Origin: a virus
Lineage: Duplodnaviria > Caudoviricetes
Length of the DNA: 64,000 bases
Virus record (IMG/VR): IMGVR_UViG_3300046615_000177
Coordinates: 32,001 to 96,000 of that record
Direction: 5' to 3' (one strand)
Numbering within the stretch: position 1 is the first letter of the stretch; each line of letters begins with the position of its first letter. The notes under the pieces were generated by a model that did not search any database, was not told the DNA's origin, and saw only the letters and a list, made by a program, of their open reading frames with translations. The position numbers and the translations under genes are program-made. Below are positions 1 through 64,000 of the stretch, piece after piece.

Positions 1-3000
1 GTTGGCGAAGTGCTCACGGTTCCGCATGAACGTATCGTAGTTGACGATATGGAAGTCATGATCTTCGGAAGCATGAGCTGATGTGTTCTTCTTGAAGCTC
101 TTGAAGTCCACCGCTTCCTGCTCATTGCCCGCCTGACCCCACATGCTGCGGCCGCGCTCGTTCTTGACGCCCTTCAGGCCGGAACCGATGAATAGCGCTG
201 TGCTGTTGGTGTGGGACCCGACTTCCTTACCCCAGTCAGACATGATGCCCTTCGGAGATACGATCAGGGTCTTCTTCGGCTTACGCCCTGCTGCCAGCTC
301 TTCTGCCTTGTAGTGCAGTCCGGCCACGACGCCCAGAATGGTCTTCCCGGTGCCCATGCCGTGCCCGGCGATTGCTCTTCCGCGCTTCCGAAGGTGGGCG
401 GCTCCTTCAAGCTGCGTCCCGTAGAGTCCTTGGCTCGGGTTCATCAGGTAGGAGTGTTCGTTGAACTGCGCCTTGTAGTGCTTGTCGAATTCCGGGTTGC
501 TCGTCTTGACCGTCGATGGCTGGAACTGATCACGAAGCTCCGGCACGCTCTCCGGTTTGCGGTCCTTGCGGGCAAAGTGGTCTTTCAGGTACTCCGACGC
601 TTCGTGCGTCAGCGATATGCCTCTGCTGTCCTTGCCAAGGTCTTCACGCAGCTTTTCGAACATGGCGGTGGATATGCGAGCTGTCCCGTCATTCAGAACC
701 CGGACGCCTGCGGATTCGACATGCTTCCGCATAGAATCGGGCACGTGTACCTCCAGCTCCTTGACGTACGAGCTGCTGAACTTCGCCATCAGCTCCTTGC
801 CCGCTTTGGAACGTCCCAGCACCTTCGCCAGCCGCTTGTGCTGCTGGTCAGACAGCTCGATGTCCTTCTGAAGGTTTCCGTCCTTATCGAACGCTCCTTG
901 ATTGACGTTAGCCTTCTGGAGGGCTTGTGTGAACAGGTCCTTGGCGAGGTCTGCCCGGCGCTGAGATTTTGGGTCTTCTCCCTTGAAGGCCTCCGCGATG
1001 TTCATCCGGTGCGCGCCAGATTTTGCTACTTTGACGACAGCGTTCCCGGAATCGGACAGGATTCGACCTTCTTCCCTAGCTGCCTTCAGCTCGCCTTTGC
1101 CAAACATCCCAATGACATGGCCTTTGCCGTCTGTGACCTTATAGGTGTCGCCCTCAATCGAGTGGATTCGACCCTTTCTGTACCCTGCGCCGTCCTTATA
1201 CATCACCGCGTTGCCTGCTTTCATGGCGACGTCGTTCTGTGTCGTAAAGCGTCGGTCCACCAGCTTACCGTTTTTAAACAAGGCCTTCACGGGTTCCCCA
1301 GTGGTCGGGTCGATACTGCCCTTCGGAACATCGCGGCTGTCAATATAGCGGTAACCGTCATACTTGCCTCCGACGACGCGCGGCGCTCCCTTACCGTCGT
1401 ATTCGAGCTGAATATGGTGACCCAGTGCGTCTCCGATGTGAATATCGCTGCCAAAGTGTGCCGTAATCCAGCGTCGGTTACCTACTGCGGACTTCAGAAG
1501 CTCGTTAAGGTCCGATTCGTTGGAAATAGGCTTACGCTGGTTCAACAAGCGCGCCATCAGAGGGTCCTTAATGTACCCTTCAGCATCGGTCGAGATGTGG
1601 TTAACAGTTCCATCCGCCATCTTCTGTGCGAAGGTCTGCATCTTGATCGAGCCGTCACTATCGCGAGCTTGGTCAACCAGCTTGAACTCTTTGTGCAGCA
1701 TGGTGTCCTGAAGCCCTGCTTTAGTGTTGGCGCGATGCTTCGCCCATTCGTCGTCTGTGATCTTCTTCATGAATGGCTTGTCTGCATCGGTGTTGGCAAA
1801 CTGCGTTAGGGTAGCCTTAAGGTTGGAAGCGTCCTTTCCGGTGTACCCTAGCGCCCGGCCAAGGTGTCCCCAGTTCGTTAAGTCCTCATGTGCCCCGCCG
1901 TCCGGGTCGAACGCTTCAGTAACAGCACTCGTGTACTTACCGCGCTCTTCGTTACCATCGGCGTCCTTCTTACGGGAGCCTGCTCCCCCTGTGAAGTCTC
2001 CGCCGATCTCCACCAGCATTGTCTTCCCGGTGATCGGGTTGCCAATCATGTACTTACCTTCCGGCAGCAGGTTCTTCCCTGCTTCCTCACGGGCGCGGCC
2101 CATTTCCTTCACGCCAAAAGACTCGGCCAGTGCTTCCATATTCCCGTCGGCTGCTGGGTTCATGCTGGCTACATCCTTCAGAAAGCTTCCCATTTTGTCC
2201 TTGTTACGGCCAGCTACTGAACCGATACCTGCCAGAACCTCGCGGGCCTTGGCTTCAGCTTCGGAAGGGTTCTTACCGGATTTATAGGTATCATGATAGG
2301 CTTGCAGCGCCTCTTTGACGCCCGGCTTGTTCAAGAAGTGACTTCCAAGATGGGTCCGCTTCTCGTCCTCTGTCATGCTGTCCAGCTCTTCGCGCTCAGC
2401 GTCTGGCAGGTCAGAGTAGACATCCAGCGCTTTATGGGAGTGGTTGTCAAGAAAGTCTTTCACATGTCCCCCTACAAGCCTATTGCCGTCCTTCTGCTTC
2501 CAGTCAGAACGCATCCGCTCCATTTGCTCGCGGAATGCTTGAACGCCGTGGTCGACCACATGGCGGTTATCCTCGTTGACGTCCGCATCACGGGTGAACT
2601 GAATATCTCCGGCGTCATCGAAGTCAACGCCCCGGTTCTTCTTGGCGTAGCTCGCGCGCTCAGTAGCGTAGTCAAAAGTACCGTCCTTCTTCCCGGCGTT
2701 CTTCTCTTTGGCTGCGATGTGGCTCTTCCATCCCTCACGAGCGGAGGCCTCGCGGCCCTCTTCGTGAGAAGCCAGCGCTTCCCTCTCATGATGAAACTCC
2801 AGCTTGTCCTCCTGCGCACCTGCGTTGTGCTCGTCCCGATGCGCCGCATTCGACGAATCATACAGAAGCTCCCCGGTAGTAGAGCTGACAAGCACACGCT
2901 TGCCGCCCCACGTAATCCATGCAGAGCCGGGGTTCTTCAGCAGCAGCTCTTCCGACCATGTCTTACCGCCACCCTTGGATCGGGCGGCGGCGTGCTGTTG

Positions 3001-5163
3001 TTCAGAGATACTTCCGTACTTCTTCTTGTTGGCCTTCACATACTCGGTTGCCCGGCTGTTAACGGCGTGGTTACTCCCGCCTTTATGGGGGAACATGGAC
3101 TTCCGAAGCTCGTTACGGTGCGCGTTGAACGACTTATACAGGTCGTTGTCCGGCGGCAGCGTAAGCTCGGTGATGTGCGCCACGACGTCGCCTTCGTCCA
3201 GCATGATAAAGCTGCCCACGTACTCGTGTGGCTCCATGGACTTCAGAAGGTCATCCTTGCTATCAGCATACAGCGTCCGGGTGTAGGTCTGCTGTAGAAC
3301 ATCGACACCCACACCCCAAGACCGCAGGGACTTCACGAGGTCGTATTCGTAGAAGGCCTTCATGATCGAACCAACTACAAGGGACTTCAGCATCCGTAGC
3401 TGCTGGATGGCAGGGTGATTCTGCATAACAGCGGCGCTGATCTTCTTCATTGCCCGACCAAGGGTGTTCTCGACCCATTTCGTGTCCACGTCCGCCCCGT
3501 GCTTGTCGTTGAGACGCTGCGCCACTTCGGAAGCCGTCATGCTCGCCTTACTGCCTGTTTCGGAAGCTTGGGAGTGCTTAATGGTCATTGCCCGGATTTC
3601 GTCGTCCGTCAGTCCCATGTCACGCATAGCCTGCGGAAGCGCACCCTTCAGTTCGGCCTGCCGCTCTTTCTCGATAGCTGCTTCTTCTGGGGAGGCTCCG
3701 GTACGCTCAGTTACGCTGTCCTTAATGGACACGGTCTTCCCATCGGCGCTCTCTGCGGCTGCTTTGTCGATGCTCGTCGTCTTCTGCTGAGCGCTGTAGT
3801 TCTTCAGTGCTCGAAGCTTGTCAGATGGGTCCTCATACCGCTTGTTGGTTTGCACCCAGTCGCCCTTAGCGTCGTCGTAGTGTGGCGCACGCACAATCGG
3901 GGCGTCCTTGAATGCCTTGGAGTTGGCTTCGAGATGGTCAGCCAGCTCCCCATGCGTAGGTGCCCGGCCAAGCTTCTGCGTCAGCGACTCTTCATGCTTC
4001 CGCATATCCCCGATAGCTCCACGAATCTCGTGCGGTGCCGGGATGTCGTTCATGAAGTCGTAGATATCGCGGTGGAGCTTCTGCTTCATCCGGGAAATGG
4101 TATGAGCTGCGATGGATGTCCCCTGCTCGGGGTTCTGGCTACCGGACAGGACACTATGCAGTGTTTCGTACATGGAGCCGCGAGCTGCCTGAAGCAGGTC
4201 ACCGTATACACCCTGCTCTTGCTGCACATTAGCATCCTTGGCAGCTTCCTTCTTGCCCTCTGCGGAACGGTTTGCCCCTTTATGCCGCTTCAGGATGTGC
4301 ATCTGTCCCATGACATGAAGTCCCCGGGACTCGGCCATCTTCTTCACAACATGGCGGGCCAGCTTGTCGTTAGCCTGCGTGATCGCCCCGGCCACGTTCT
4401 TGATGTCCTCCGCATTGCGCTTGTTGACGGGCAGCGCCATAATAGCCTGCACCTTAGGCGTGTTCCACATCGCATCAATGTGAGTAGCTTCAGCGCTCGG
4501 TGTGGACTCCAGCTTGTTCAGCTCGTCCGCTGCCTTGCTCTGCTCGTTAGCCTTCGGGTCCTCCTGCTGCCGCTTGCGGTTCTGCGGGATGGTGCCCTTG
4601 ACCTCCTTGGTCTTGCTGCTCTCGTCGTGCGTGGTATCGCGCTTCAGCACAGGCGCTTCCAAAGCCTGCGTCCGCTTACTCTTACGACCTTCGGAAGCTT
4701 GCACAATGTTGTCGATTGCCGTCGATGCGGTTGCTGTCGATTTCGACGGCTTCCGGGTGTCGGATGCTGTCGAAACGGTAGGGTCTGTCAAATTTTGGCC
4801 CCGACCCGTGCCTCCCGTGGCATTGGTCTTGTTGGCCTCTTTAGTAGCCTTGCCCTTCGCAGCGGCGTTCGCTGCACGCTTAGCTTTGGCGTCGGCCTTC
4901 TTCTTGGCCTCTACGACCTTGGCGTGGTCGTTGGCATGCAGCACGTTCTCGCGTTTGACCTTACCGACTCTGCCGTCTTCGAACCGCACCTTGTGGTGGG
5001 TGTCTCCGGTCTCCTGCACGACTCCTGCTTTGCCCGTGCTCGTTACAACCTTGCTGCCGCCCTTGATGGCCGTGAACTTACCGTACGTATCACGTGGGTG
5101 TAGCGAATCTCTCCACGACTTCTGAAGGCGGTCGCTCCCGATATACAGCACAACATCTCCCAT
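1..5163 (-). CDS. Giant polyvalent virion-type protein (>=1721 aa, runs off window): sigma70-like domain + SNF2 helicase/ATPase
   Basis: Absent from the ORF track because it has no stop in the window. ATG at 5163 follows RBS AAGGAGG. Manual translation begins MGDVVLYIGSDRLQKSWRDSLHPRDTYGKF. Sigma r2 YGDLLQAARGSMYETL (~4160-4206), r3 SLTQKLGRAPTHGELADHL, r4 MTASEVAQRL...RAMKKI (~3440-3540). SNF2 motifs HGMGTGKT (340-363), LIVSPKGIMSDW and IVNYD. Confidence 0.88.
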   Translation of the reverse strand, partial: MGDVVLYIGSDRLQKSWRDSLHPRDTYGKFTAIKGGSKVVTSTGKAGVVQETGDTHHKVRFEDGRVGKVKRENVLHANDHAKVVEAKKKADAKAKRAANAAAKGKATKEANKTNATGGTGRGQNLTDPTVSTASDTRKPSKSTATASTAIDNIVQASEGRKSKRTQALEAPVLKRDTTHDESSKTKEVKGTIPQNRKRQQEDPKANEQSKAADELNKLESTPSAEATHIDAMWNTPKVQAIMALPVNKRNAEDIKNVAGAITQANDKLARHVVKKMAESRGLHVMGQMHILKRHKGANRSAEGKKEAAKDANVQQEQGVYGDLLQAARGSMYETLHSVLSGSQNPEQGTSIAAHTISRMKQKLHRDIYDFMNDIPAPHEIRGAIGDMRKHEESLTQKLGRAPTHGELADHLEANSKAFKDAPIVRAPHYDDAKGDWVQTNKRYEDPSDKLRALKNYSAQQKTTSIDKAAAESADGKTVSIKDSVTERTGASPEEAAIEKERQAELKGALPQAMRDMGLTDDEIRAMTIKHSQASETGSKASMTASEVAQRLNDKHGADVDTKWVENTLGRAMKKISAAVMQNHPAIQQLRMLKSLVVGSIMKAFYEYDLVKSLRSWGVGVDVLQQTYTRTLYADSKDDLLKSMEPHEYVGSFIMLDEGDVVAHITELTLPPDNDLYKSFNAHRNELRKSMFPHKGGSNHAVNSRATEYVKANKKKYGSISEQQHAAARSKGGGKTWSEELLLKNPGSAWITWGGKRVLVSSTTGELLYDSSNAAHRDEHNAGAQEDKLEFHHEREALASHEEGREASAREGWKSHIAAKEKNAGKKDGTFDYATERASYAKKNRGVDFDDAGDIQFTRDADVNEDNRHVVDHGVQAFREQMERMRSDWKQKDGNRLVGGHVKDFLDNHSHKALDVYSDLPDAEREELDSMTEDEKRTHLGSHFLNKPGVKEALQAYHDTYKSGKNPSEAEAKAREVLAGIGSVAGRNKDKMGSFLKDVASMNPAADGNMEALAESFGVKEMGRAREEAGKNLLPEGKYMIGNPITGKTMLVEIGGDFTGGAGSRKKDADGNEERGKYTSAVTEAFDPDGGAHEDLTNWGHLGRALGYTGKDASNLKATLTQFANTDADKPFMKKITDDEWAKHRANTKAGLQDTMLHKEFKLVDQARDSDGSIKMQTFAQKMADGTVNHISTDAEGYIKDPLMARLLNQRKPISNESDLNELLKSAVGNRRWITAHFGSDIHIGDALGHHIQLEYDGKGAPRVVGGKYDGYRYIDSRDVPKGSIDPTTGEPVKALFKNGKLVDRRFTTQNDVAMKAGNAVMYKDGAGYRKGRIHSIEGDTYKVTDGKGHVIGMFGKGELKAAREEGRILSDSGNAVVKVAKSGAHRMNIAEAFKGEDPKSQRRADLAKDLFTQALQKANVNQGAFDKDGNLQKDIELSDQQHKRLAKVLGRSKAGKELMAKFSSSYVKELEVHVPDSMRKHVESAGVRVLNDGTARISTAMFEKLREDLGKDSRGISLTHEASEYLKDHFARKDRKPESVPELRDQFQPSTVKTSNPEFDKHYKAQFNEHSYLMNPSQGLYGTQLEGAAHLRKRGRAIAGHGMGTGKTILGVVAGLHYKAEELAAGRKPKKTLIVSPKGIMSDWGKEVGSHTNSTALFIGSGLKGVKNERGRSMWGQAGNEQEAVDFKSFKKNTSAHASEDHDFHIVNYDTFMRNREHFAN

Positions 5164-5189
5164 GCCTTACCCCTCCTTATTTCGCGCAC

Positions 5190-5218
5190 AAAAAGCACCC
5201 GGCCTATCCACCGGATGC
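5190..5218 (-). terminator. Rho-independent terminator-like hairpin
   Basis: Minus strand GCATCCGG-N8-CCGGGTGC followed by TTTTT. Confidence 0.6.
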
Positions 5219-5301
5219 AAATTGTCGGTTATTGGCGAGTTCATTCTATCAGACCCGCCATGGTTTTGAATAGGTTAGACTTCGGAAGTCCTGTAAACGA
5301 C

Positions 5302-5332
5302 AAATAACCCTAGCCATTTAGACTAGGGTTAT
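5302..5332 (-). terminator. Terminator-like hairpin after the polyvalent protein gene
   Basis: ATAACCCTAG...CTAGGGTTAT perfect 10-bp stem, T-rich tail on the minus strand. Confidence 0.6.
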
Positions 5333-5436
5333 AAGCAGTGAAGAGGTGTCGAAGCTCCCACCTAATAACAGTGAAGCCTACTTCGGCGGAGTGGAATCTA
5401 CCGTTTCGTGCCTAGTTCTACATTAGCACATCACAC

Positions 5437-8400
5437 CTACTCTCGCAAGGTCTCTCCGTCATTAAATATCTTCCGGTCCTCGTCCGGGTTCGGAATAGGG
5501 ACGATGACGCCGACCCCGAAAGGTACAGGCTGGCGGCTCACCAGCTCTCCGTGTTCGTCCTCTTCAATCCACGGAGGCTTCGGAAGTGCGATGACGTAGG
5601 CAGCAGTCTCGTCGTACAGGTCGTACTGGGAAATGGCGTAGCCCAGCGCCTGCTCAAACAAGTTGGTAAAGCAGGTCTCCTGTGCTTCCTTGTCGTCATC
5701 ATTACCCTTGCCCTTAGTTTGCACGTAGCCCTTGGCATTGATAGCTTCAAGCTCTTTCTGCCCGATGCCACGGTACATGACATTGGGGTCTCCGCCGAAG
5801 GGGTCGTTGCCCGCTGGGTCAGCGATGATCGACTTCCACAGCACCCGGTACTTGGCGATGGCTTCCCGCCGCTCGGCTTCATCCTTGCCCTTCACGATGC
5901 AAGGGACATGGGTGTAGTCCTTCTCCTTGGATGCTATCCAGCGGTGGTGCCCGTCGTGGACGTCATCGTCGTATCCGATCTCCACAGGCTTCAGGCCGAC
6001 GCCCTGCGTCATCTTCTCCATATTCTCGCGCACCTTGTCCCAGTTGGTCGCTTCCTCGGTTTGGTACACCATTTTCAGGCGGTTGACTGGGATGTAGATA
6101 ACTTCTGAAGGGTCGGTCTCATGGTCGATAGCGTAGGCGCTCCGCTCGGTGATGCCGGAGACCACAGCGTCCGGGTCTCTGCGGGCTTGCATAGCCGCCA
6201 GCCTTGCCACGTAGTCGTTGCCCTTCGCTCGAAGCTCCTGCTCATTGAACAGCACATGCCCGTCGTACCGCCCGGTCAGCTCCTTATTGCGAATCTCCGT
6301 CAGGCTTATGTCACCCATGGACTTGCGTAGCTCCATGTCCATCGCCTTCTTCAGGGCCTTGGTCTTGGTGATGTGCTTCAGGAGCGCATCCATGGCGGCG
6401 TGCATGTGCTTGCGCTCGTCACCTACTGGGAACGGCGCGTCGAGGTTTCCCTTGGAAGTCTTCGTGTCCCACACAAGGTAGTTGTTTTTACGCTTCTTGG
6501 CGGTCAGTTTATCCTCGATCATGGACTCGAACACCCGGGCAAACATCTCGCACCCTTGGGCGTAGTATGACTTCCCGCCTCCGTCAAACTCCTGCATCCG
6601 GGTGTAGTACTCACTCTTACCCGTGGGCACCTGAATCTCGCCCTTGTACTCGGCTCCGGTCTTGCGCTTCATCTCGTAGGCGACCATGTGAGGCAAGGCA
6701 TTAAGCTCTTTCGTATGATTACGCTGCGCAATCTTAATACGCTTCTCCCGGTCCTTATCGGATTTTACGAAAGAGCTATTCATGACTCGGCTGACCGCAC
6801 GGTCGTACTCGTTGTCGATCTTGTCCTTCCAGCGGGTATACACCGTTTCAGGACTGTCCCCTGCCTCTATTTCCCGGCGCATGCTTGGGTAATAGGAGCC
6901 TGCGGGTCTGGCCGTGGAGTCTATCGAAATCTTTGTTACACCGCCGGGCTGTCCCGGTGCAGGCTTGCGAACGGCTTCCATCAGGTCACCGTATAGTCTC
7001 TTCAGCTCGGGGTCCCCATCGCCCATCGACTGCGGCGCATCGGATGCCAAGGATAGCGATCCAGCGCTACCATGCGAGTAGGCATACATGATATTGTCCA
7101 TCGCATGGCCCCACTCATGCGCGAGGGACCCCGCGCCGCCGAACTTGGTCATGTTGATGACCTTACGGTCCGGCTCATAGTGGGCTACTGCTCCAGCTTT
7201 ACCACGAGCACCGAACGCTATCGACAGCCGCCCATTCAGGGATACGTCCTTGTCCTCCACTCCGATGATATCAGCGAGGTCACTGAAGGCTTCGGAAGCA
7301 CGCTTCAGGTGGTACAGGCCAGACGAATCGTCCACCCAGTTACCAAACTCCACGCCCTTCACGTTGAACTGCTTGACCATGTCCTCCGGCTTCTTGACGG
7401 TCGTTTCCTTCCCACCTGTTCGCTGGTGCTCACTGACGGCCATGCGCTCCCACTTCTTCCTGCCTGCTCCCCGTGTGGAGGAACGGTCCTTCTCGTCGGC
7501 CCCATCTGCTGCGGCTTCGGAAGGCTTGAAGTAAGTGTCCCAGTTCAGCTTCTTGTCGACCACTGTCTGGAAGGTGCGCACGCGAGAGTTGCCGTTTGTG
7601 AAGAAGTTATTCAGCTTGTCTCCCATAGCCTCGAAGTCCATAACCTTCTTGGCGGCTTCGGCCTTGCTGATACGCTCGTTGTAGTAATCGTGGTTGAAGT
7701 AGGAGGCTGAACCGCTGTTTGCTACCTTATGCTTCAGCTCCGCCAGCCCGTCGCTCTCTCTTGCAATGGTGCCCAGCTCAGACACGGACTTCCGAATGTT
7801 GTCCCACGTCTTAATAGGGGCGAGCACCCGGTGAAGCTGCCGGATACCGTTCAGGTAGGCCGCACGATCCTCGGGCTTGTCACCCGCAGGCTTCGGTGCT
7901 ACCCGGTCGTATATAAGCTGCTTCAACATAGCAGCGTTAATCTCCACACCGTTCTTCTGCTCCTGCTCGAAGTCTACAGGTGGCAGGATGTTCTTCTTCA
8001 CACACATCTTCTGTGCCACTTCCGGCGCAACCTTCTCCAGCGCTTCAAGGTTCTGCATCGTCGGCTCGGTAGTAAAGTTCTTTTGGAACGTGTCCTTGCG
8101 AGCGCCGCCCACCTTGTCGCCTACGTCGTAGGCCAGCTCTCGGTTAGCTTGGGCTTCGGAACGAATGTCGGCTACCTTGCCCGGCGCTTTCGCTTGTTTG
8201 CCCCCTGCCGGAGCCGCTTTTGGTGACTTCGGCTTCGCGGCTGGTTTGCGGTCTGGTTTGATGTCCACAGGTACTGTGAGTGTGGCGGGCTGCTTACCTC
8301 GAACAGGCTTCTTTCCAGCTCCGCCCACTGTTCCTGAGTCGATTTCTTTTCCGGCGGCGGGCTTTCGCTTAGCCGCAGGTTTGCCAGCGCTGCTACCAGC

Positions 8401-8856
8401 CTCGCCATCGACGGCCTTCCCAGCCCCACGACTATTACCCTTTGCCGCTCCTCCACTGGCTGCGCTCCCCTTCTTTGCCGCTACTCGTTTTTGCTTGGCT
8501 GCGGCCTTGGCTTCAGCGGCAACGTTGGCCTGATGCTTCTGAAGCTGCGGTTTGGTGGCCTTCTTCGCGCCACCACTAACTGCCGGAACCGATCCTGCCA
8601 GTACCTTGCCGTCCTTGACGTAAATATGGTGACCACTCATGGTCACCCATTGCCCACCCGGAGGCAGTTCCTTATGAACCGCCTTGGCTTGGGTCTTCGT
8701 TATCTTCGTCGTCTTCTTTGTCGTACTGGCGGTACCACTCCCCGCAGATTTTACCTTCGTCTTCGTCGTCGGTGGTTTGGTCGTCGTGCTTTTCAGTGCC
8801 TTCCGAAGTTCCTCCGGGTTGTTGATGATGTTCAGGCTGCTCGCGTCCAGTAGCAT
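5437..8856 (-). CDS. Large polyvalent protein: Lys/Ala-rich N-terminus, LPD1/zincin-like domain, ParB/Srx-like domain, ADP-ribosyltransferase-like C-terminus
   Basis: LPD1-type motifs GVEFGNW, LSIAFGARG, AHYEP, SLAHEWGHAMD and EMFARVFE. ParB/Srx motif DGHHRW. ART-like MYRGI...CFT...ALGYA...EHGELV. Start moved to the ATG at 8856 (RBS GGGGGAG). Confidence 0.8.
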   Translation of the reverse strand: MLLDASSLNIINNPEELRKALKSTTTKPPTTKTKVKSAGSGTASTTKKTTKITKTQAKAVHKELPPGGQWVTMSGHHIYVKDGKVLAGSVPAVSGGAKKATKPQLQKHQANVAAEAKAAAKQKRVAAKKGSAASGGAAKGNSRGAGKAVDGEAGSSAGKPAAKRKPAAGKEIDSGTVGGAGKKPVRGKQPATLTVPVDIKPDRKPAAKPKSPKAAPAGGKQAKAPGKVADIRSEAQANRELAYDVGDKVGGARKDTFQKNFTTEPTMQNLEALEKVAPEVAQKMCVKKNILPPVDFEQEQKNGVEINAAMLKQLIYDRVAPKPAGDKPEDRAAYLNGIRQLHRVLAPIKTWDNIRKSVSELGTIARESDGLAELKHKVANSGSASYFNHDYYNERISKAEAAKKVMDFEAMGDKLNNFFTNGNSRVRTFQTVVDKKLNWDTYFKPSEAAADGADEKDRSSTRGAGRKKWERMAVSEHQRTGGKETTVKKPEDMVKQFNVKGVEFGNWVDDSSGLYHLKRASEAFSDLADIIGVEDKDVSLNGRLSIAFGARGKAGAVAHYEPDRKVINMTKFGGAGSLAHEWGHAMDNIMYAYSHGSAGSLSLASDAPQSMGDGDPELKRLYGDLMEAVRKPAPGQPGGVTKISIDSTARPAGSYYPSMRREIEAGDSPETVYTRWKDKIDNEYDRAVSRVMNSSFVKSDKDREKRIKIAQRNHTKELNALPHMVAYEMKRKTGAEYKGEIQVPTGKSEYYTRMQEFDGGGKSYYAQGCEMFARVFESMIEDKLTAKKRKNNYLVWDTKTSKGNLDAPFPVGDERKHMHAAMDALLKHITKTKALKKAMDMELRKSMGDISLTEIRNKELTGRYDGHVLFNEQELRAKGNDYVARLAAMQARRDPDAVVSGITERSAYAIDHETDPSEVIYIPVNRLKMVYQTEEATNWDKVRENMEKMTQGVGLKPVEIGYDDDVHDGHHRWIASKEKDYTHVPCIVKGKDEAERREAIAKYRVLWKSIIADPAGNDPFGGDPNVMYRGIGQKELEAINAKGYVQTKGKGNDDDKEAQETCFTNLFEQALGYAISQYDLYDETAAYVIALPKPPWIEEDEHGELVSRQPVPFGVGVIVPIPNPDEDRKIFNDGETLRE

Positions 8857-9133
8857 CGGTTTGCTCCCCCTTCTCATGCAAGATGGCAGGGACTGCGTTG
8901 TCCGTGTAGTAAGCATTGACATGACCTTCGCCCACGTCCACCTTCACCAGCTTTAGTAGCCCCTTGCGCACCAGCTTCTTTAGTCCGTTCTTGCTGATCA
9001 TATCCGACTCTGTAAGCACGATTCCTGCGACAGGCATCCCGGTGGATACCACCATGCCGTCAATGGCGGTCAGAACGAAGCCCTCGCGGGATTGTCTGAA
9101 TTGCAGCGTGCCCTCGGTCTGTGGGTAATTCAT
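8672..9133 (-). CDS. Hypothetical protein
   Basis: RBS AAGGAG; 3' end overlaps the next gene by ~185 nt. Confidence 0.6.
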   Translation of the reverse strand: MNYPQTEGTLQFRQSREGFVLTAIDGMVVSTGMPVAGIVLTESDMISKNGLKKLVRKGLLKLVKVDVGEGHVNAYYTDNAVPAILHEKGEQTDATGREQPEHHQQPGGTSEGTEKHDDQTTDDEDEGKICGEWYRQYDKEDDEDNEDPSQGGS

Positions 9134-9153
9134 AGCTACCAGCTCCTTTATAA

Positions 9154-9657
9154 TTAGGCCTCAGTGACTTCGACCTGTAAGTATACAACAATCATGAACC
9201 GATGCTGCTCTGCGATGCGCGCCAGCCGCATGAGAGTAGGAGGCACCAGCACTTTAAGTTTTACGCGAGCCGGGTCAATGGTCAGGTCTCTTTCCTTTGT
9301 GGTGAACACCTTACGCTCTTCAGCCGGAAGGTATCCCTCTGGATATGTCTCTACTGCGCTATACGCGCTTGGCAGGTGGACGGTCATTGGTTCCTGACCT
9401 TCGGAAGGTACGAAGCCGTCAAAGTGCGGAGCCAGTAGCCCTGCAATTGCGTACCCTAATCCCTCAGCAAAGTCCTCTGTCGCCTTTGCAACAACATCAT
9501 CGTCGTTCTCATAGGCCTTGTACGTGTAGGTGCGCCCGTAGCACTTAGTGCCGCCTGTGGTGAACACCTTCTCGTTAGGTAATGCCTCATACAGCCCGCC
9601 TATCTCCAGTTGCTGCGAGTTGTGCTCATACGGAATGTTCTCAATTTCGAGTCTCAT
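9154..9657 (-). CDS. Hypothetical protein
   Basis: 167-aa ORF with purine-rich RBS, fits the gene packing. Confidence 0.7.
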   Translation of the reverse strand: MRLEIENIPYEHNSQQLEIGGLYEALPNEKVFTTGGTKCYGRTYTYKAYENDDDVVAKATEDFAEGLGYAIAGLLAPHFDGFVPSEGQEPMTVHLPSAYSAVETYPEGYLPAEERKVFTTKERDLTIDPARVKLKVLVPPTLMRLARIAEQHRFMIVVYLQVEVTEA

Positions 9658-9726
9658 TGTCCTTCATCCCCTTAATTGGTATTTGATGGCCCCATGCTAT
9701 ACTAGGCCTTCCGAAGCCGTCAAGCA

Positions 9727-11019
9727 TTAAAGATTTGGATCAGGCGGCAGTCCTCGCTTGGCGCGCTCTTCCTGAATCAACTCAGAGGCGGACTTCAGCG
9801 TCGGTACGCCCTCCACCATCTTGTAGAACCGGGAGATGCGGTGCCAGCGGCAGCGACATAGCGGGTGCATTGGGATGCACGGACGGTATGTAGCCACTCT
9901 GCGGCCGAAGTTGGTCTTTCCCGGCCACACCATCTGTGCGTCGCTGGCCTCGGACTCTTCGGAAGGCGGCTCCCGCAGCACGGTGAACTGCTTGCCGATG
10001 ACCATCTCCTTGCAGTGCTTGCAGGCGTCCACGCTGCCCATCCCAATCACCTGCTCGCCATCCTCCAGCTCTGACAGGTAGGCATCGCTCGCTACCATTG
10101 CCAGCTCCGTGATAGCTACACGTCTCCAGTCCCTATTCTGCTCCCCGTACAGGTCGAATAGCTCCTGTTCGAGGCGCTTCGGAAGCCAGCGCTCCTTCTT
10201 GGCCCGGATGATTAACTGCTTGATTCCCGCCCGGTGCCTGTCGTCCACTTCCTGCACCTTGTCTGCTGCGCCGTGGGTGGCATGAGAAACGGCTGCGGCT
10301 TCACGGGGGGTAAGTGGGAGGATGGTAACCTTGTGTCCTTCTGAAGCCTTCTCACGGGCTTCTCGTTCTGTAAGGACGACGGACTCTCTCCGGGAGGCTT
10401 GGATGCTCTCCGGGAATCGGTCAACCATGGCCCCGATGGTGCTGATAACCTGCTTCTCGGACTCGTTGCGAATCTTGCCGATAAATCCCGCACGTACCAT
10501 GTAGGCCTCGACAGTTTTCGCATAGTCCGGTAGGCGGGACCGTAGCATTTTGTCGATCTTTGCCAGCTCCGCCTTCTTGAAGGGGTTGGTGTCCTGAATG
10601 TACTTGACGAAGGACTCCCGCCGCTCCTTGGAGACGGCCACAAGGTCCGATATGCGGCGCTTGGCGTTACCCATCCAGCCCTGCTTCGACTTTGTCAGGT
10701 CGTCTACATAGGTCTCATACTCTAAAGTGAATGCCTTCTCGGTGTCCAGATCGTCAACGTTTAGGCCCAGCGCAGCAAATATGTCGGCCATACGCTGAGC
10801 GCTGGCTTCCTGAAGCTCTTCGTATAATCCGTCCTCTGCCTGCCCCAGCAACTCGTCTCCGTTACGCTCCCACATGTTGTGCTCGTCGCCCCTGCCCGCT
10901 ATTACGTTCATAACCTTCGGAAGCTCCATGGCCTGACGGAGAGTAACCAGTATCTGCTCCCGCACTTCAGCGGGAGCTTGTTGGATGTCCTTCGGAAGCT
11001 GGATGTTTAGTTTGTTCAT
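9727..11019 (-). CDS. Head morphogenesis / minor capsid protein (SPP1 gp7 / Mu gpF-like)
   Basis: RRVAITE, ACKHC and PMHPLCRCRW motifs; downstream of the portal. Confidence 0.85.
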   Translation of the reverse strand: MNKLNIQLPKDIQQAPAEVREQILVTLRQAMELPKVMNVIAGRGDEHNMWERNGDELLGQAEDGLYEELQEASAQRMADIFAALGLNVDDLDTEKAFTLEYETYVDDLTKSKQGWMGNAKRRISDLVAVSKERRESFVKYIQDTNPFKKAELAKIDKMLRSRLPDYAKTVEAYMVRAGFIGKIRNESEKQVISTIGAMVDRFPESIQASRRESVVLTEREAREKASEGHKVTILPLTPREAAAVSHATHGAADKVQEVDDRHRAGIKQLIIRAKKERWLPKRLEQELFDLYGEQNRDWRRVAITELAMVASDAYLSELEDGEQVIGMGSVDACKHCKEMVIGKQFTVLREPPSEESEASDAQMVWPGKTNFGRRVATYRPCIPMHPLCRCRWHRISRFYKMVEGVPTLKSASELIQEERAKRGLPPDPNL

Positions 11020-11243
11020 AGCGCACCTGCTGGTTCACTTCGGAAGGTATAGCCATTTAGCGACAGGACGTATATAAATCCCGGTAGCTGAGCTGCGGGT
11101 ACTGTAAATACGATGTCGGTCGCTGCATCCTCTCCATCCAGCACGTCGTCGATCTCGATGGTGACGACATAGTACTCAGGATGTTCGAGGGCGATAACAG
11201 CTTCTGACTCTTGGCTAAATCGGTTGTAGCTCTCCATTCCCAT
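11016..11243 (-). CDS. Hypothetical protein
   Basis: RBS AAGGGAGG; ATGA overlap with the next gene. Confidence 0.65.
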   Translation of the reverse strand: MGMESYNRFSQESEAVIALEHPEYYVVTIEIDDVLDGEDAATDIVFTVPAAQLPGFIYVLSLNGYTFRSEPAGAL

Positions 11244-11262
11244 GTGTGAACCCTCCCTTGGT

Positions 11263-24620: not shown

Positions 24621-25169
24621 TTAAGGTCTTCGGAAGTTAAGGGTGTGCTGCGGCCAAGCGCTCCGCGTGGCTTCGGGTTCGTTCTTCTCCCTCCAGCGCC
24701 TGTCGAGCTGTTCACATTTCGCCTCCATCGCAGATGCGAGGTCAATGCCTAAGTAGTCTGCCGCGACTGCGATGTTCCACACCATGTCAGACAGCTCGTA
24801 CCCGATAAGCCTCAGACGTATGTCGCGCGGCCCATCTTCAATGCGGACCCCTTCTAACCGGATAATCTCCTTGGCTACTTCTCCAAGTTCGGAAGTAAGG
24901 TGCAGCATGCGGTTCGCTATGGGTACGTCGTACAGACCGTGCTGCTTGGCTGATTCAGCTACCCGCGCCTGATACTCACTCATTCCATACTTCGGAAGTT
25001 CGGCACTGCCACTCTTCGGAAGTACAGTGGGTAAGCAGTCAGAACAATAGTTGATTACCATGTCCACGCCGTGGGACTCTCCGCATACCTTGCATGTGCC
25101 ACTTGGCACCGGGTGCCCTACCCATTCGTGCAGAGGCTTGCACTTCTCGCAGTTACATATCTCTTTCAT
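24621..25169 (-). CDS. MazG-like nucleotide pyrophosphohydrolase with N-terminal zinc finger
   Basis: HLTSELGEVAK...ELSDMVWNI...GIDL. Confidence 0.8.
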   Translation of the reverse strand: MKEICNCEKCKPLHEWVGHPVPSGTCKVCGESHGVDMVINYCSDCLPTVLPKSGSAELPKYGMSEYQARVAESAKQHGLYDVPIANRMLHLTSELGEVAKEIIRLEGVRIEDGPRDIRLRLIGYELSDMVWNIAVAADYLGIDLASAMEAKCEQLDRRWREKNEPEATRSAWPQHTLNFRRP

Positions 25170-40569: not shown

Positions 40570-40616
40570 TGTCTCTCCTTGGGGAGCCGCCTTTGGTCTG
40601 GGTGGCTCCGCTTTGC

Positions 40617-43964: not shown

Positions 43965-45065
43965 GCGAGACAGGATGTCGGCCACACCCTGCTTCGCGCT
44001 TGGCACTCCTGCGGCCTGTAGTGCCCTCTGCCGGGGCTTGCTGGTTTGAACCGTCTTAGGCTTGTACTCTTCCTCTTCTCGCGTGTCCGGGGAGCCTGCG
44101 GCCTCTATCCGGGCGTCGATCTGCTCGAACCGGGTTTTAGGGAACGGTAGGCCTGTCAGCACGGTCAGGATGCGCCCGCCGTTGTCCTCGTGATAGTAGC
44201 CTTCAAACAGGTCAATAGGCGCCCTTCCGAAGGGGCTGAAGATCGTAGCTGCATCGAAATGGTTCATAAGGGACTCCTGCCCATCGTAGATAAGCGCTGC
44301 CTTGGTAACGCGGTCGTACTCAATGGTGGAGAATATGGAGGACGTCCAAGAGCTTTGTATGGTGCCTGCAATGCCCTCTGGCGTGATGTCCGTTTTTCCC
44401 CGGGATACCTTGGCAATCTCCGCCTCTGCGATAACCCCAATCCCCGGCTGGCTGAATAGCGTCGCGAGGTCGGTACGGTCAAAGTTACCGTTCCGGCTCT
44501 CCTTCTCCGTGAAGGCGTTCAGATCGAACAGAAAAGAGCTAAAGCGCTCGTTTGTCTCCCGGTACTGGGCGTTCTTTCCGCCGCTAATCTTGTCATTGTC
44601 TACGGGCAGTATGCATACGCCAAGCTTCAGAAGCTCGGACATCGTCGCACTGGTATTCGCCTGACTGACAGGGGCCTCCGTTCCGCACGGCAAGATAGGT
44701 ACAGCCACGAACACCTTATCTTGCATAAGCTCCGCCAGCAGGTCGAGCAGAATCGGGGCCATCCCTGCCCCGGAGCCGCCGCCCGTAGCAAAAGGCACGA
44801 AGATCAGGCGGTAAGACGGGCTTCCGAAGTTCTCCTGCACGAACTGGTACACCATGTCATAGTGCTCTGCCATCAGGGTAATTGCCAGCTCACGATCATG
44901 TCCTACGCCCTCTGAACCCGGCACCTTCAGCTTGTGCTTTACACTGGCCGCGCTGTTGAGGTCGCGCTGTGAGAAGTTGATAGCTGCGGCGTGGATGCCC
45001 AGCAGGCTCGCCTCGTTGGCGATGTTTCCGCCTGCTCCGCCCAACCCTAAAACTGCGATTGTCAT
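43953..45065 (-). CDS. tubZ: Tubulin/FtsZ-family GTPase (TubZ-like)
   Basis: VLGLGGAGGNIA, GGGSGAG signature, NFDRTD T7 loop. Confidence 0.88.
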   Translation of the reverse strand: MTIAVLGLGGAGGNIANEASLLGIHAAAINFSQRDLNSAASVKHKLKVPGSEGVGHDRELAITLMAEHYDMVYQFVQENFGSPSYRLIFVPFATGGGSGAGMAPILLDLLAELMQDKVFVAVPILPCGTEAPVSQANTSATMSELLKLGVCILPVDNDKISGGKNAQYRETNERFSSFLFDLNAFTEKESRNGNFDRTDLATLFSQPGIGVIAEAEIAKVSRGKTDITPEGIAGTIQSSWTSSIFSTIEYDRVTKAALIYDGQESLMNHFDAATIFSPFGRAPIDLFEGYYHEDNGGRILTVLTGLPFPKTRFEQIDARIEAAGSPDTREEEEYKPKTVQTSKPRQRALQAAGVPSAKQGVADILSRYRR

Positions 45066-46737: not shown

Positions 46738-46823
46738 AGTTTTCCACTCCTTGTGCATACACAAAAGCCCACAGGTTTCCGGCGTGCTCATTGGTTATCT
46801 GTAGGCTCTTAGGTGTGTGGTGC

Positions 46824-57540: not shown

Positions 57541-57753
57541 TTAGAGCTTATTCACTTTGCGGAACAGGTGGTGCGCAGGAAGGCCCTCACTTCGGAAGGT
57601 CGCCCTGCACTGCTTCATCTGCTCCGTTTCCCCTACATACATCCATCCGACCTGAAAGCCAGAGGTACGAGAGATGTCGAGCCGTATTTCCAGCCCGAAG
57701 TCCTTTGCTCTCTTGACGAAGTCACCTGTGTGTACCAGCTTGTAGGGTTCCAT
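57541..57753 (-). CDS. Hypothetical protein
   Basis: Starts immediately after the pol stop codon. Confidence 0.55.
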   Translation of the reverse strand: MEPYKLVHTGDFVKRAKDFGLEIRLDISRTSGFQVGWMYVGETEQMKQCRATFRSEGLPAHHLFRKVNKL

Positions 57754-60700
57754 CTATGCCACCTTGATTCCGGCCAGCTCATACATATGCATGTATGGCT
57801 CGATCATCTCGTAGGTCACGTCCATGGCTTCCTTCTTGACCTTCTTAGGCTTCACGTATGGATTGCCGTGCTCGTCCCATTTCAGGTCTAGGGCAGTGTC
57901 CCACGTTGCCCCAATAGCAGGCTCGGCTACAATCGGCATGATGTCGCTAAAGCCGTCAATAGGGCGCTCCATAACCTCCTGAATAAACATAGCTGCCTCA
58001 ACCGCATGCTCTACAGGGGCCTGCCCCTGAAGCTCGTCATGAATCTGCATATGCATCGAAAGTGCTGGACAACGGTGCTGCTCCTTACGGATGTTGACCA
58101 TCGCCAGTGCGATGATGTCGGCCGCAGAGCCTTGGATAGGTGTGTTCATACAGATGTTCTCTGCCTTCTGCCGCACCCACTGGTTACTATCATTGATATG
58201 AGGCACTGGGCGGCGATGGTTGAACATCGTAGTTACATAGCCATTCTTACGAGCAAAGGAAATCATCTCGTCGGCGTACTCTCGCACTCCCGGGAACGTC
58301 GCCATGTAGTCCGCGATGAATTTTTTGGCTTGGGCGACAGTCATGCCCATTGCGGGGTCCTTCGCTAGTCCAAACTCTGTCATACCGAACACGATTCCGA
58401 AGTTGACCTTCTTGGCGCGGTACCGATGGGACTTGAACAACTCTTTGACCTCTTCCAACAGGCAGGCCAGCTTGAACACCCGGTGCGCTACCCAAGCATG
58501 CAGGTCTCCCCCGGAAGCGAGGGTATTGATCATACCCATCTCCCGGGCAAACCACGCCAGCACCTTCAGCTCAATCTGCGCGTAGTCAGCTCCGATGTAG
58601 AACACGTGGCCGGACAGCTTTTGCTTGACGATGAAGTGCCACGTCTTGGCGGTGAAATCGTTCAGCTTGTCCGGCGTGATGATCTCTCCGCCTGCAAATA
58701 GCTGCTCGGTCTTCTCCTTATCCGCCAGCAGAATGCGCTTGTCCGGCAGAATAATCTCCCCGGAAGGCGGAAGGAACGGTGCTACGAAGACCGACCGGAT
58801 GCCCATAGGGTCATTATCGGGGCGCGGGATATTCTGAAGGTTCGGTTTCTTTGACGACAGCCTCCATGTGTTGACAAGGTTCAGTGCGGTATGGAGCCTG
58901 TCCGTGTCTGTCCGGCAGAATGGGAGCATTCCGTTAACGTACGTCGAGTTGATCTTGTCGTACTTGGACTTCTCCTTCAGAATCTTCATGAATGGGCTAT
59001 CACCGTCGTAGTTCTCAATGAAGCGGTCGACGGTCTCCGCGTTTGTCGTCGGAAGGCCAGAGTCTCCGCGCTGCACTCCCTCCAGCGGGAACTTCAGAAT
59101 GTGGTAAAACAGCCACTGCCGATGCCCCGGACTCGCCCAGTTGAACGGTTTACCCTCCTTGATGAACAGGGAGATAGGCGCTTTACTGCGTTCACCCTTC
59201 TTACGTCCCTCACCCATTGGGTACTCTCCGGCAGGTACAATGACGTTCTCGCGGCCCAACTCTTCGTCGTATACGACCTCAGCATGCGGAACAATCTCGA
59301 TCAGCTCGTCGTTCAGAAGGCTCTCCAGCCCTTTGATACCTGCGTCCGTGCTCGCATTTGGGTCGCCCTTCAGCGCCTTCATTGCTACCTGCTTCAAGGC
59401 GAACAGTCTATCGCGGCTGACGTGCCACCCAGTTAGTTCGTACTCTGCCAGCACCATCATGCGCGGCACGTCAAGTTCGAACATGACCTCCATAACACCC
59501 GTCGCTTCAGCCAATGGCAGTAGGTAGTAGTAGAGTCCCAGCGCCCAGTCGGAGTCGGACGCGCCATAGTCAATAGAGTGCTTATCTACAGGAAGCTCAT
59601 TGAACGTCCGGCTGCGGGAGTGCTTTGATACCTTGGCTTTTTTCTGGCCTTTTTTAGCCCCGGATTTGTAGTGGCCCATAGACTCCTCCCAGTACTCCGT
59701 GGTCCACTCATGCTTTCCGACCGTATCCTTAAAACTCTTAATCTCGTCGATGCTCAGTAGCCCATGCACCATACCGTGCTCGTCGGCCAGCAGCGCCTTA
59801 GTTGCAGGCTTCAAACCTACCCGAACCTCGTAGGACTCACCGTCGAACTCGGTGTTTTCGGGCAGGGCCAGCAGCTTCACCATCAGCATGGTGTCCACTA
59901 CCTTATGCTTCAAGGCTTTGTGGAAAAAGTCGATCCCGTGCGTCAGGCTCCACTGGTACTCTGCCTTGATGTTGTGGGCAATCAGCAGGATGTCCGGGTC
60001 TTCAAGCAGCGGCTTCAGGAAGATGCTACGCAGCTCCTGCCAGTCCCAATTGGCCCCGTAGTTGTCATGCCTGATCGGTAGATAGACCGCAAACTTCAGC
60101 TTCCATGTGAAGGAAACCCCGACGATGTAGTGGTCCTGCGGGTCTGTCGTATCGTCGTCGGGGTCTCCGTTGGTTTCATAGTCGAACGCCATAACTTGAT
60201 GGAGGATGATCTGCGCTTTGTAGTACATCAGCGCCTCTCGGTCATTCTTTCCTACTGCGATGTAACCGTCCGGGATCGGCTCGGCCAATACGTTGTGACC
60301 GCCCTTCAGAAGTGCCTCAGCCTGCGAGGGGTTAAGCTTGGCAGGCTTTACAGGTGCCCCGGGAGGTACCGGACGTGACGGTCTTGGCGGTATACCCATC
60401 GCTTTTGCAGAGTTGTCGTACGCCTGCTGCGACGATAGCTTGTTGACAACTTCCTGCGCACCCTGCTGCGTGGCCGTAGTGATAATGTCCGCTACCGGGC
60501 TTCTGAAGCTGTCTACCTGTGCCCTCACGGCCTCCAGCGCCTGATCGTTCACGGCTTCCTGCCGCATTCCCGGAGGAACAGGACGCTTCGGTCTTTGTGG
60601 CCTCGCAGGAGCCGCTGTGGTGGCTTGTGGTGGTGCTGGCTCCGCCTTTACCGACACTTCACCCTGCGGCGTCCATATCGTCGCTGGCGCGGGTGCTGGT

Positions 60701-62695: not shown

Positions 62696-64000
62696 GAGTT
62701 TAAGAACTCTATGAACTTCGGAAGCTTACGAAGACCTTCGCGAGTCCGGCTGATCATCGAATGTTTGGTCAGGATTGCAAGCCGGGCATTAACCTGCCCT
62801 CGCTCGTATCCCAGCATGTCAATGATCTCATTCGGCTTCAGAATCTCGTTGCGGCGGAACAACTCCAAGATTTCAGTAGACACCGCAGCGTTGTCACTGA
62901 AGTCAATGTCGTGAAGCTCCTTGGCGACGGTCTTACGGTCTTCCTCAGTCAGCTCTGTCTCGCCCTGACTCTTAGCGCTATAGGTGTCAAGCCGGGCGTT
63001 CTTGTTGTCGTACACGACCTGCAAGAATTCGGCTGCGTAGTCCACATGCTCCGGCTGCACCATAACGTTCTCGTGCGTGTCGTCTGCCGAATGCACAAGA
63101 GCGGCCAGTGCGATAGCTAAGCGGCATATCTTCTTCCGAAGGTCGGAAGGCTCCATCAGCGGTATATCTTGGGCGTATCCATACTTAGTCCCCAGCAGGT
63201 CTGCAAAGTGCAGTACGCGCTTCATGGCAGGCTTGGTGATCACAATCTGATCGGCCTTCCGGCTCCACGCCCATAGGATGCTGTTGCGCATGGTCTCCGA
63301 AGAGATGATCTGTGTCCGCTTGGTCTCGTCCTGCTCAGAGTTAAGCACGGACTTCGGAACATCGCCGGACTGAAGGAATACGGCCAAGTCCAGACGGCGT
63401 ATATCTGCCGGGCTTGCGAACAGTGACTTTAGCGCCTCCACCCCATGAGTAAAGGACGACAGCGTACGTGCCCGGGTAGGGTTAGTGAGCAGCAGCAGGC
63501 GTACTCGTGCGTTAGTTTCTGTATCCATCCCGGCCCGGTTAACCTTCAGAACGCCAGTGGTGCGAGCTTCCGTGATCTTCCCAAAGTCATCCGGTGGCAT
63601 CTCGGAGAACTCGTCCAAGGCCATCAGGCGGCGGTCAGACAGAGGGTAGCTTCCCCACTTAATGAACCAGCGCTCTCCGATCTGCTCCAGCATATAGACC
63701 AGCCCGGTACGGCTGGACCCTTCGCCGGAGGTCATATTCCCAAGGCCACAAAACTCCATAATATTACTTACGAGCTGCGTCTTAGCCTGCCCAGAGTCTC
63801 CGACGAAGATTGTCTCCATCCATCCGCGCTTTTCGAGCTGCCCCTGAAAATAGTAGTTCAGGCAGGAGTGGTACGTCATTAAGGCGGCAAGATGGGCCTC
63901 GAAGCGCTCCCGAACCAATGTGACATTACCCACAAGGTCCTCAATAATCAGCGACACCCGGTCATCCAGCGTCTCGCCCGGAGCCTTCTGAAACACCTTG
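62692..64000 (-). CDS. MCM-family AAA+ replicative helicase (5' part outside the window)
   Basis: VGDSGQAKTQ, SSRTGL, LDEFSEM, NARVRLLLLTNP, RRLDL arginine finger, C-terminal winged helix. Confidence 0.85.
   Translation of the reverse strand, partial: KVFQKAPGETLDDRVSLIIEDLVGNVTLVRERFEAHLAALMTYHSCLNYYFQGQLEKRGWMETIFVGDSGQAKTQLVSNIMEFCGLGNMTSGEGSSRTGLVYMLEQIGERWFIKWGSYPLSDRRLMALDEFSEMPPDDFGKITEARTTGVLKVNRAGMDTETNARVRLLLLTNPTRARTLSSFTHGVEALKSLFASPADIRRLDLAVFLQSGDVPKSVLNSEQDETKRTQIISSETMRNSILWAWSRKADQIVITKPAMKRVLHFADLLGTKYGYAQDIPLMEPSDLRKKICRLAIALAALVHSADDTHENVMVQPEHVDYAAEFLQVVYDNKNARLDTYSAKSQGETELTEEDRKTVAKELHDIDFSDNAAVSTEILELFRRNEILKPNEIIDMLGYERGQVNARLAILTKHSMISRTREGLRKLPKFIEFLNS

Follow-up and report, generated by a model that had tools for sequence, protein, structure and literature searches.

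A highly iterated palindromic word in a clade of uncultured soil phages and a Spartan-like protein as its candidate reader

The window and its iterated word

The window analysed here, a 64,000-nucleotide stretch of IMG/VR virus record IMGVR_UViG_3300046615_000177, comprises bases 32001-96000 of one 106,642-bp virus contig (G000) with a G+C content of 54.8%. Genes encoding portal, terminase and capsid proteins were identified in this contig, and no tRNA genes were found in it. Simple calling of open reading frames (ORFs) yielded 133 genes, all located on the minus strand. The subject of this study is a short palindromic word, CTTCNGAAG, that is dispersed over the entire contig. Sites with C or G at the centre are referred to as S-centred and those with A or T as W-centred. 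The following features of the window, none of them assigned to a strand, are discussed below.

63..63141, no strand: dispersed array of 110 exact CTTCNGAAG sites (83 S-centred and 27 W-centred), the window's share of 191.
5280..5288, no strand: an intergenic site, one of 31 spacer sites in the genome.
9708..9716 (genome 41708), no strand: a site in a sigma-A-like promoter spacer (TTGACG, one base, the word, -10-like TATAGC), assigned by eye.
24990..25022, no strand: two S-centred intergenic sites 24 bp apart; such close pairs are rarer than chance.
57590..60312, no strand: the widest stretch without a site (2714 bp), lying within the DNA polymerase I gene; P(equal or larger gap) = 0.77.

The window contains 83 CTTCSGAAG sites against 0.49 expected; none of 100 dinucleotide-preserving shuffles produced more than 3. 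For CTTCWGAAG the count is 27, where such shuffles predict 0.46. These exact counts agree with the estimates of about 80 and about 25 given in the initial annotation, which was made from the sequence alone. The whole 106.6-kb genome carries 191 sites, of which 151 are S-centred and 40 are W-centred; no other 9-mer in it comes close to CTTCCGAAG in frequency. The word thus displays the over-representation typical of highly iterated palindromes (HIP), which are short, exact, enriched 15-300 fold and genome-wide. Site density along G000 is uniform (12-22 per 10 kb). The spacing of sites is more even than random in G000 (coefficient of variation, CV, 0.85; P = 0.013) and in the related genomes G003 (CV 0.72, P < 0.001) and G411 (CV 0.76, P = 0.006) described below, and gaps shorter than 50 bp are depleted in G000 (7 vs 16 expected), G001 and G003. 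The initial annotation had drawn attention to a site-free stretch in the DNA polymerase gene. This gap is real (57590-60304) and is the largest in the genome, yet it is unremarkable for 191 randomly placed sites. The accompanying suggestion that perfect sites are sparse in conserved cores did not hold, as core genes carry 1.75 sites per kb and genes without homologue in the other three genomes compared carry 1.44 per kb.

Sites fall in all three coding frames and in non-coding DNA, as initially described. Frame 0 (CTT-CNG-AAG, read as Leu-x-Lys) accounts for 99 of the 191 sites, frame 1 for 41, frame 2 for 20 and spacers for 31. W-centred sites are nearly all in frame 0 (35/40). Spacers make up about 8.5% of G000 DNA and hold about twice their share of sites; 16 of the 31 spacer sites fall 2-17 nt past the stop codon of the upstream gene. 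Three sites in the genome, including the one at 9708 and two outside the window, are embedded in putative promoters that were assigned by eye. Seven sites had been called non-coding in the initial annotation. Those at 5280, 9708, 19783, 20463, 38145 and 56940 are indeed intergenic, and the one at 19705 lies in a 68-amino-acid ORF call.

Synonymous shuffles (n = 100) that keep each protein sequence and the codon usage of each gene left 10.4 ± 2.4 coding S-centred sites (maximum 19) compared with 120 observed, and permutation of codons within genes left 2.3 ± 1.1. The enrichment therefore survives comparison with a codon-preserving null. Because the two nulls differ, the protein sequence itself has been bent. 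Matching peptide patterns are enriched about 2-5 fold: L[PRQL]K occurs at 2.1-3.6 times, [SPTA]SE[VADEG] at 2.9-5.2 times and F[RG][SR] at 1.7-2.3 times expectation in word-bearing proteomes, whereas the same three patterns reach only 1.0-1.9 times expectation in the word-less sister lineage. A codon or peptide artefact was rejected, since all frames and the spacers carry sites and the shuffles lose the enrichment. Selection acts on the DNA word itself and has shaped protein sequence, in agreement with the earlier proposal. The word also confounds a Leu-x-Lys-(Ser/Ala) "head-protease cleavage motif" noted at window 1489-13150 and genome-wide. L[PRQL]K is found 119 times where 33 are expected, with 99 of the 191 sites reading L-x-K, and the base 3' of the word is rarely A, so that Ser/Ala-type codons are favoured next.

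The unit that is recognised was examined through imperfect copies. Relative to a trinucleotide Markov model, which is itself inflated by the word, one-mismatch variants are enriched solely at the first and last letters (1.7-6.7 times expectation). Substitution of the first C by G is enriched 5-7 fold (for example GTTCSGAAG/CTTCSGAAC), by A about 3 fold and by T 2-3 fold. Variants at inner positions 2-4, of which CTACGGAAG is an example, are near expectation (most 0.2-1.5 times, a few up to 3.1 times). The abundance of one-mismatch variants reported initially thus applies to the outer positions, and the inner ratios lie near 1. Left-arm and right-arm variants are broadly alike in number on the coding strand, the central base is near-equal by strand (81 G vs 70 C), and arms separated by 0, 2 or 3 bases are not enriched in G000 (3, 15 and 4 copies). 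The flanks are weakly biased, T being under-represented before the word and A after it. Flank complementarity equals expectation in five genomes, and the palindrome does not extend beyond 9 bp. A hairpin or cruciform was rejected, because the flanks are no more complementary than chance. Judged from the sequence, such a pattern points to a factor that reads duplex DNA symmetrically; it would require a strict TTCNGAA core and prefer the outer C/G pair. In most lineages the central base is C/G as well.

An action of the word in RNA would fit the orientation of the genes, which all lie on one strand so that every copy is transcribed. CUUCGG also contains the stable UUCG loop motif. However, the two centre variants occur at similar rates and both arms are equally strict, which a single-strand reader would not need. 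The flanks lack complementarity that would lengthen a hairpin, and some sites lie in putative promoter spacers, upstream of transcript starts. We consider an RNA-level function extremely unlikely.

Distribution, conservation and loss of the word in the clade

Relatives of G000 were retrieved from IMG/VR with terminase and major capsid protein. As far as sequence comparison indicates, they form a clade of uncultured soil phages with genomes of about 100 kb and a distant relationship to SPO1-like phages. Isolated phages yielded no close relative (TerL is about 31% identical to that of SPO1-like phages), and no TerL relative was detected in GTDB genomes by a pattern method. The genomes compared with G000 are as follows.

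G001: 104,950 bp, G+C 45.3%, 127 S-centred sites.
G002: 94,044 bp, G+C 57.1%, 107 S-centred sites.
G003: 99,180 bp, G+C 54.6%, 145 S-centred sites.
G411: 102,131 bp, G+C 42.7%, 29 S-centred and 50 W-centred sites.
G412: 80 kb, 83% complete, two sites; word-less lineage, with the lowest G+C (40%).
G413: 38.5 kb, one site; word-less lineage.

Examination of related phages, a check suggested in the initial annotation, showed that the word is the top 9-mer in G001, G002, G003 and G411 as in G000, that is, in five genomes. G+C contents of the word-bearers span 43-57%. Complete word-bearing genomes carry 79-191 copies, about one per 0.55-1.3 kb. G001-G003 each share just 53-56 of the 133 G000 proteins, with a mean identity of 47-52%. 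All loci whose capsid gene has at least 70% identity contain 0.4-1.7 S-centred sites per kb, and the word is the top 9-mer in all of them except one short 4.7-kb locus. When IMG/VR was scanned for pairs of sites no more than 30 nt apart, seven dense, dispersed loci appeared among the at least 114 stretches listed, and all seven encode proteins of this clade. SPO1-like relatives (33-40% capsid identity) have 0-1 S-centred sites, and at most two of either centre, per 2-21 kb locus.

Codon alignments showed that orthologous sites are conserved in 17 of 79 cases in G001, 22 of 87 in G002 and 25 of 89 in G003. Arbitrary 9-mers keep all eight fixed letters in 2.4-4.8% of cases, placing the conservation of sites 5-9 times above this background. 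The fate of a site is bimodal, as it is either intact or carries 3-6 differences. About three quarters of the sites are not shared between genomes and density is nonetheless kept, indicating turnover under maintained density.

The clade splits at 67-68% capsid identity into the word-bearing G411 and the word-less G412 and G413. G411 is nearer to G412/G413 (57% identity, 38 shared proteins) than to G000 (50%). Between G411 and G000, 6 of 33 sites are common by position against a background of 1.8%, whereas the word-less lineage retains none of 75 G000 sites and one of 36 G411 sites. Because G411 and G000 share sites and the word-less lineage is nested, the word was present in the common ancestor and has been erased in G412/G413. 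Protein constraint is not the cause of site conservation, since sites are erased in an equally distant word-less lineage. The metagenomic outgroup L346 (49% capsid identity) has no site in 17.4 kb, from which it follows that the word arose within the clade. The word is real, is under selection, is restricted to this clade and was lost in one nested lineage together with a protease gene described below. Other repeats were observed in the word-less genomes. G412 contains the strand-biased heptamer CAGAGGC (72 copies vs 9.9 expected, 57 on the coding strand), of which G413 has 42 copies, and a tandem array with a 24-bp period containing CAGGTGTAAC at about 46080-46296.

Six-frame profile searches for methylases encoded by the phages themselves covered the C5, N6/N4 and D12 classes. 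Neither PF00145 (C5) nor PF02086 (D12-class) was found in any of the five complete genomes, and PF01555 (N6/N4 methylase) was found only in G001; the other four word-bearing complete genomes have no methylase of these three classes. The G001 methylase is located at L014:68-862 (record 40065-40862, minus strand, E = 4.6e-30). G001 also has a second iterated palindrome, CTTCGAAG, with 68 copies compared with 3, 5 and 12 in G000, G002 and G003, and the fragments most closely related to G001 (L163, L170 and L270) carry CTTCGAAG at 0.6-0.8 per kb. CTTCGAAG may be a methylase-linked "alternate" word.

These observations bear on the proposal, made for HIP1, that methylation-linked or otherwise biased repair creates and keeps such a word without any reader. 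As reported for HIP1 (PMC4390886), copies that deviate by one letter do so mostly at the first or last position, and the only genome with an N6/N4 methylase is the one with the second iterated word (68 copies vs 3-12). Against this stand the lack of phage-encoded methylases of the three classes in four of five genomes, the conservation of sites well above background together with their erasure in the word-less sister, and a spacing that is more even than random in three of five genomes, although a methylase or repair system encoded by the host may contribute. Repair drive is therefore a distinctly unlikely origin of the word.

Candidate readers and the host

Candidate readers were sought by a co-variation screen for G000 proteins that are present in at least three of the four other word-bearing genomes and absent from G412/G413. 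Seven proteins were obtained. Two of these (109 and 86 amino acids) do not occur in G411, and neither matched a Pfam or PHROG family. The other candidates are listed below.

Protein (a), genome 104687-106408, outside the window: Spartan-like (SprT-like) protein of 573 amino acids, in the early region.
Protein (b), neighbour of the 573-amino-acid protease: 146 amino acids, an initial co-variation candidate.
Protein (c): 238 amino acids, missing in G411.
Protein (d), window 33463-34341: RNase T-like exonuclease.
Protein (e), genome 29665-29871: four-cysteine zinc ribbon of 68 amino acids.

Several candidates were set aside. The 146-amino-acid neighbour was detected by profile search in the word-less G412 (E = 4e-16) and is non-discriminating. 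Absence of the RNase T-like exonuclease from G412/G413 is uninformative, because its region lies outside those incomplete contigs. The zinc ribbon occurs in all word-bearing major capsid protein loci that cover its slot, which lies some 2 kb upstream of the capsid gene, and in no word-less G412/G413 locus, where the slot is contiguous. It was downgraded on account of its presence in the word-less outgroup L346. Its predicted homodimer scored 0.21 (mark 0.42), and fold searches returned generic zinc-ribbon structures alone (Z <= 2.5). The binders suggested in the initial annotation did not withstand comparison either. The accessory winged helix-turn-helix, ribbon-helix-helix and Rok-like genes of the window (19.5-45 kb) are mostly without homologue in other word-bearing genomes, and the polyvalent LPD1/ParB-like protein (window 5437-8922) is also encoded in the word-less sister lineage. 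The latter holds as well for an HU/TF1-like protein at genome 3295-3567 (L001:3295-3567, minus; PF00216, E = 3e-32). This HU/TF1-like core protein is conserved across all genomes of the clade and recalls TF1 of SPO1. No repressor or integrase was recognised among the approximately 85 of 133 G000 proteins scanned against Pfam.

The Spartan-like protein was found in five of five complete word-bearing genomes, and profile searches with E up to 10 and filters off gave no match in G412/G413. The flanking genes are contiguous in G412, where other small genes, for a helix-turn-helix protein (HTH_36) and a RepA_N protein, occupy the protease slot. All 11 further IMG/VR loci with a full-length Spartan-like homologue carry the word, and one locus with only a distant SprT domain has no word. 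The protein matches Pfam family SprT-like (PF10263, E = 2.1e-8). Residues H212, E213 and H216 of the HExxH motif are invariant or nearly so among 40 homologues, all metagenomic, and conserved cysteines are also present. An AlphaFold model has a mean predicted local distance difference test score of 73.7, with high confidence in the domains. The nearest solved fold is Spartan 6mdx (Z 11.5, root-mean-square deviation 2.3 over 105 residues; Foldseek E = 1e-3), and comparison with Wss1 (5xbn) gave Z 7.0. The co-varying protein thus combines a SprT fold with an HExxH zinc site and is presumably a DNA-dependent protease by analogy. Its Spartan/SprT-like zinc-protease domain includes a zinc-binding part and is followed by a conserved C-terminal alpha/beta domain; most lineages add an NtrC/Fis-type helix-turn-helix (HTH) on a long flexible linker. 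The HTH, a C-terminal three-helix domain, resembles the DNA-binding domains of NtrC1/NtrC4 (Z 5.0-5.7). The copy in G411 lacks the HTH, and the word in G411 has a lower density and no preference for a C/G centre. The Spartan-like gene is the only one whose loss verifiably accompanies loss of the word. The initial annotation had allowed for a reader gene outside the window, and the only co-varying gene does lie there, its role as reader being suggestive from sequence.

Phage DNA was matched in rhizosphere metagenome runs, two of which may represent the source sample, and no RNA run was among the runs listed as containing phage sequence. Pfam searches identified the following window genes.

23151-23765, minus strand: SpoVT-like regulator (MazE/AbrB N-domain and SpoVT_C).
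43953-45065, minus strand: tubulin/FtsZ-family GTPase.
45487-46791, minus strand: sigma-70-family factor.

Of these, the sigma factor alone has homologues in the other genomes compared (two of three). The SpoVT-like gene and the SPO1-like affinities of TerL and PolA suggest a spore-forming Bacillota host. Some of the searches of bacterial genomes used spaced double-site or triple-site patterns as proxies, with about 10-13 hits expected for a genome as dense in the word as the phage; one proxy covered 12 genomes and gave no sign of a host signature in them. Five assorted bacterial genomes contain 29-115 copies of the word each, and 401 genomes from the phylum of a Paenibacillus genome contain 1-115 copies each, similar to a reversed-word control. 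The triple-site proxy gave no hit in 397 of 401 Paenibacillales genomes, and the hits in the other four are tandem repeats. These repeats, which contain the 9-mer with a 38-68 bp period (G606:C34:32589-32749, G768, G796 and G553), are the only multi-site hits in the 401 genomes. A GTDB-wide pair scan found no dense locus among the 80 inspected of at least 120 stretches. A recurrent inverted pair of 15+15 nt with the same 9-mer core, AGACTTCCGAAGTCT, 3-5 nt and AGACTTCGGAAGTCT, forms a long and perfect hairpin. Many metagenome-assembled genomes of Chloroflexota and Planctomycetota in GTDB (loci including L028, L029, L035, L042, L059, L061, L064, L092 and L093) contain one or two copies per locus of this pair, which looks like a small mobile or terminator-like element. 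Dense occurrence of the word was not seen in about 800 sampled Bacillota genomes, and the true host may lie outside this sample. The word is a selected trait of the phage lineage and not, in the genomes searched, a host signature, the alternative raised in the initial annotation.

The word might instead be bound by a host protein, for instance a nucleoid-associated protein, a defence sensor or a global regulator. The phages would then recruit, titrate or evade this protein, and the loss of the word would reflect a change of host. The phage reader is so far only deduced, three sites lie in sigma-A-like promoter spacers (by eye), and the lowest G+C content, that of the word-less lineage (40%), is compatible with a different host. 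The variant core TTCWGAA of G411 also resembles what we take to be the centre of the Firmicutes CodY box. On the other hand, the 43-57% G+C range of the word-bearers would imply several hosts that all need the same reader, and the word disappeared in the lineage that also lost a phage gene. No enrichment was seen in the sampled bacteria, although a host protein could act without its sites being enriched. We regard a host reader as rather unlikely.

The word might also be a palindromic Chi-like signal that tames a host AddAB/RecBCD-type nuclease entering from either end of a linear genome. A palindrome works from both ends, and the observed density would halt the nuclease within about 1 kb. The word-less sister has the strand-biased CAGAGGC, with the polarity expected of a classical Chi, but this bias may be a simple coding effect. 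The Chi sequences known so far lack symmetry and are enriched in the genome of the host, and the word is enriched in no sampled bacterial genome. A Chi-like role is thus very improbable.

The explanation that we favour, tentatively, is that the word is a recognition word on phage double-stranded DNA, selected clade-wide and read by a phage-encoded factor with two-fold symmetry as a mark of phage DNA. A dimeric phage factor would bind the word, and the word would act as a genome-wide "this is phage DNA" mark. It could tether or switch on the Spartan-like DNA-dependent protease on phage DNA alone. A more specific version, in which this self-mark licenses the protease to strip host silencers, restriction complexes or other DNA-bound defence proteins from the phage genome as it enters and replicates while the host chromosome is spared, is an improbable one; if true, it would make the protein a sequence-addressed protease serving counter-defence.

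Several points weigh against recognition by a phage factor. Binding of the word by a protein, the identity of the binder and the effect of binding are all things that we infer from sequence. The co-variation of protease and word derives from one loss, in one lineage, and the 11 further loci are not independent, as all word-bearing genomes are related. The zinc ribbon in L346 shows that presence/absence evidence is fragile here. The G411 copy of the protease ends before the HTH, yet G411 keeps the word. Two HTH heads normally need half-sites about 10 bp (one helical turn) apart, not 5 bp. In G001 and G002 the sites are spaced no more evenly than at random. The word may also be read by a host protein or recur in the host itself, the hosts covered being the genomes sampled.

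Comparison with known iterated words

The closest parallel is HIP1 (GCGATCGC) and the alternate palindromes of cyanobacteria, a likeness already proposed in the initial annotation. According to Elhai (2015, PMC4390886) and Xu, Lawrence and Durand (2018, PMC5861425), these are also short exact palindromes of similar abundance, over-represented tens to hundreds fold at about one per gene. They likewise occur in any frame and in spacers, are conserved between genomes, deviate at the outer letters and have been lost in a related lineage. The function of HIP1 is not established in the same texts. Sites of the phage word are likewise conserved beyond background, with one-letter deviations at the outer letters. 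Unlike HIP1, the word is an interrupted palindrome with a degenerate centre and is carried by a phage clade, here on a 106.6-kb virus contig instead of a cyanobacterial chromosome. A cognate methyltransferase in the same genome, a feature of HIP-type words according to PMC4390886, has a possible counterpart in only one of five genomes (G001). The 10-90 kb periodicity reported for HIP1 is beyond the reach of genomes of these sizes. PMC4390886 does not use the word "phage". In our literature search, supplementary files aside, neither the present word nor any other HIP-like or dispersed over-represented palindrome turned out to have been described in phage genomes.

Other dispersed words have identified readers. 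Noc-NBS, SlmA-SBS and ParB-parS are chromosomal arrays of palindromes read by dimeric proteins; each site spans 14-16 bp, and several megabases hold only tens of them. The phage word resembles them as a dispersed palindrome that would mark a whole replicon for a DNA-binding protein. Among phages, the nearest precedent for a site array covering the genome is provided by stoperators. Stoperators number a few dozen per genome and are oriented with transcription. The phage word is palindromic with near-equal centres and shows no such asymmetric orientation. In PMC9283540 and PMC6550527, the stoperators of Cluster A mycobacteriophages are comparable as a single protein-binding word in many copies, also inside genes, with a phage-encoded reader. 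They differ in being asymmetric and bound by a monomeric immunity repressor (PMC9283540), whereas the word described here is a 9-bp palindrome with 79-191 copies.

The candidate reader shares with Spartan and Wss1 (6mdx, 5xbn) the SprT fold, the HExxH motif and a cysteine-rich part. The phage protein differs from both in adding a conserved alpha/beta domain and a putative NtrC-type HTH. We are aware of no Spartan-family protease that has been connected with a particular DNA word.

In cyanobacterial genomes, highly iterated palindromes have gone unexplained for decades; a signal of this kind is now found in a 100-kb phage genome. The word provides a simple sequence tag for members of the clade in metagenomes. 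The natural loss of the word in a sister lineage, together with a short list of co-varying genes, makes the question of its reader testable. If a phage protein reads the word, it would constitute a genome-wide self-marking system in a virus.

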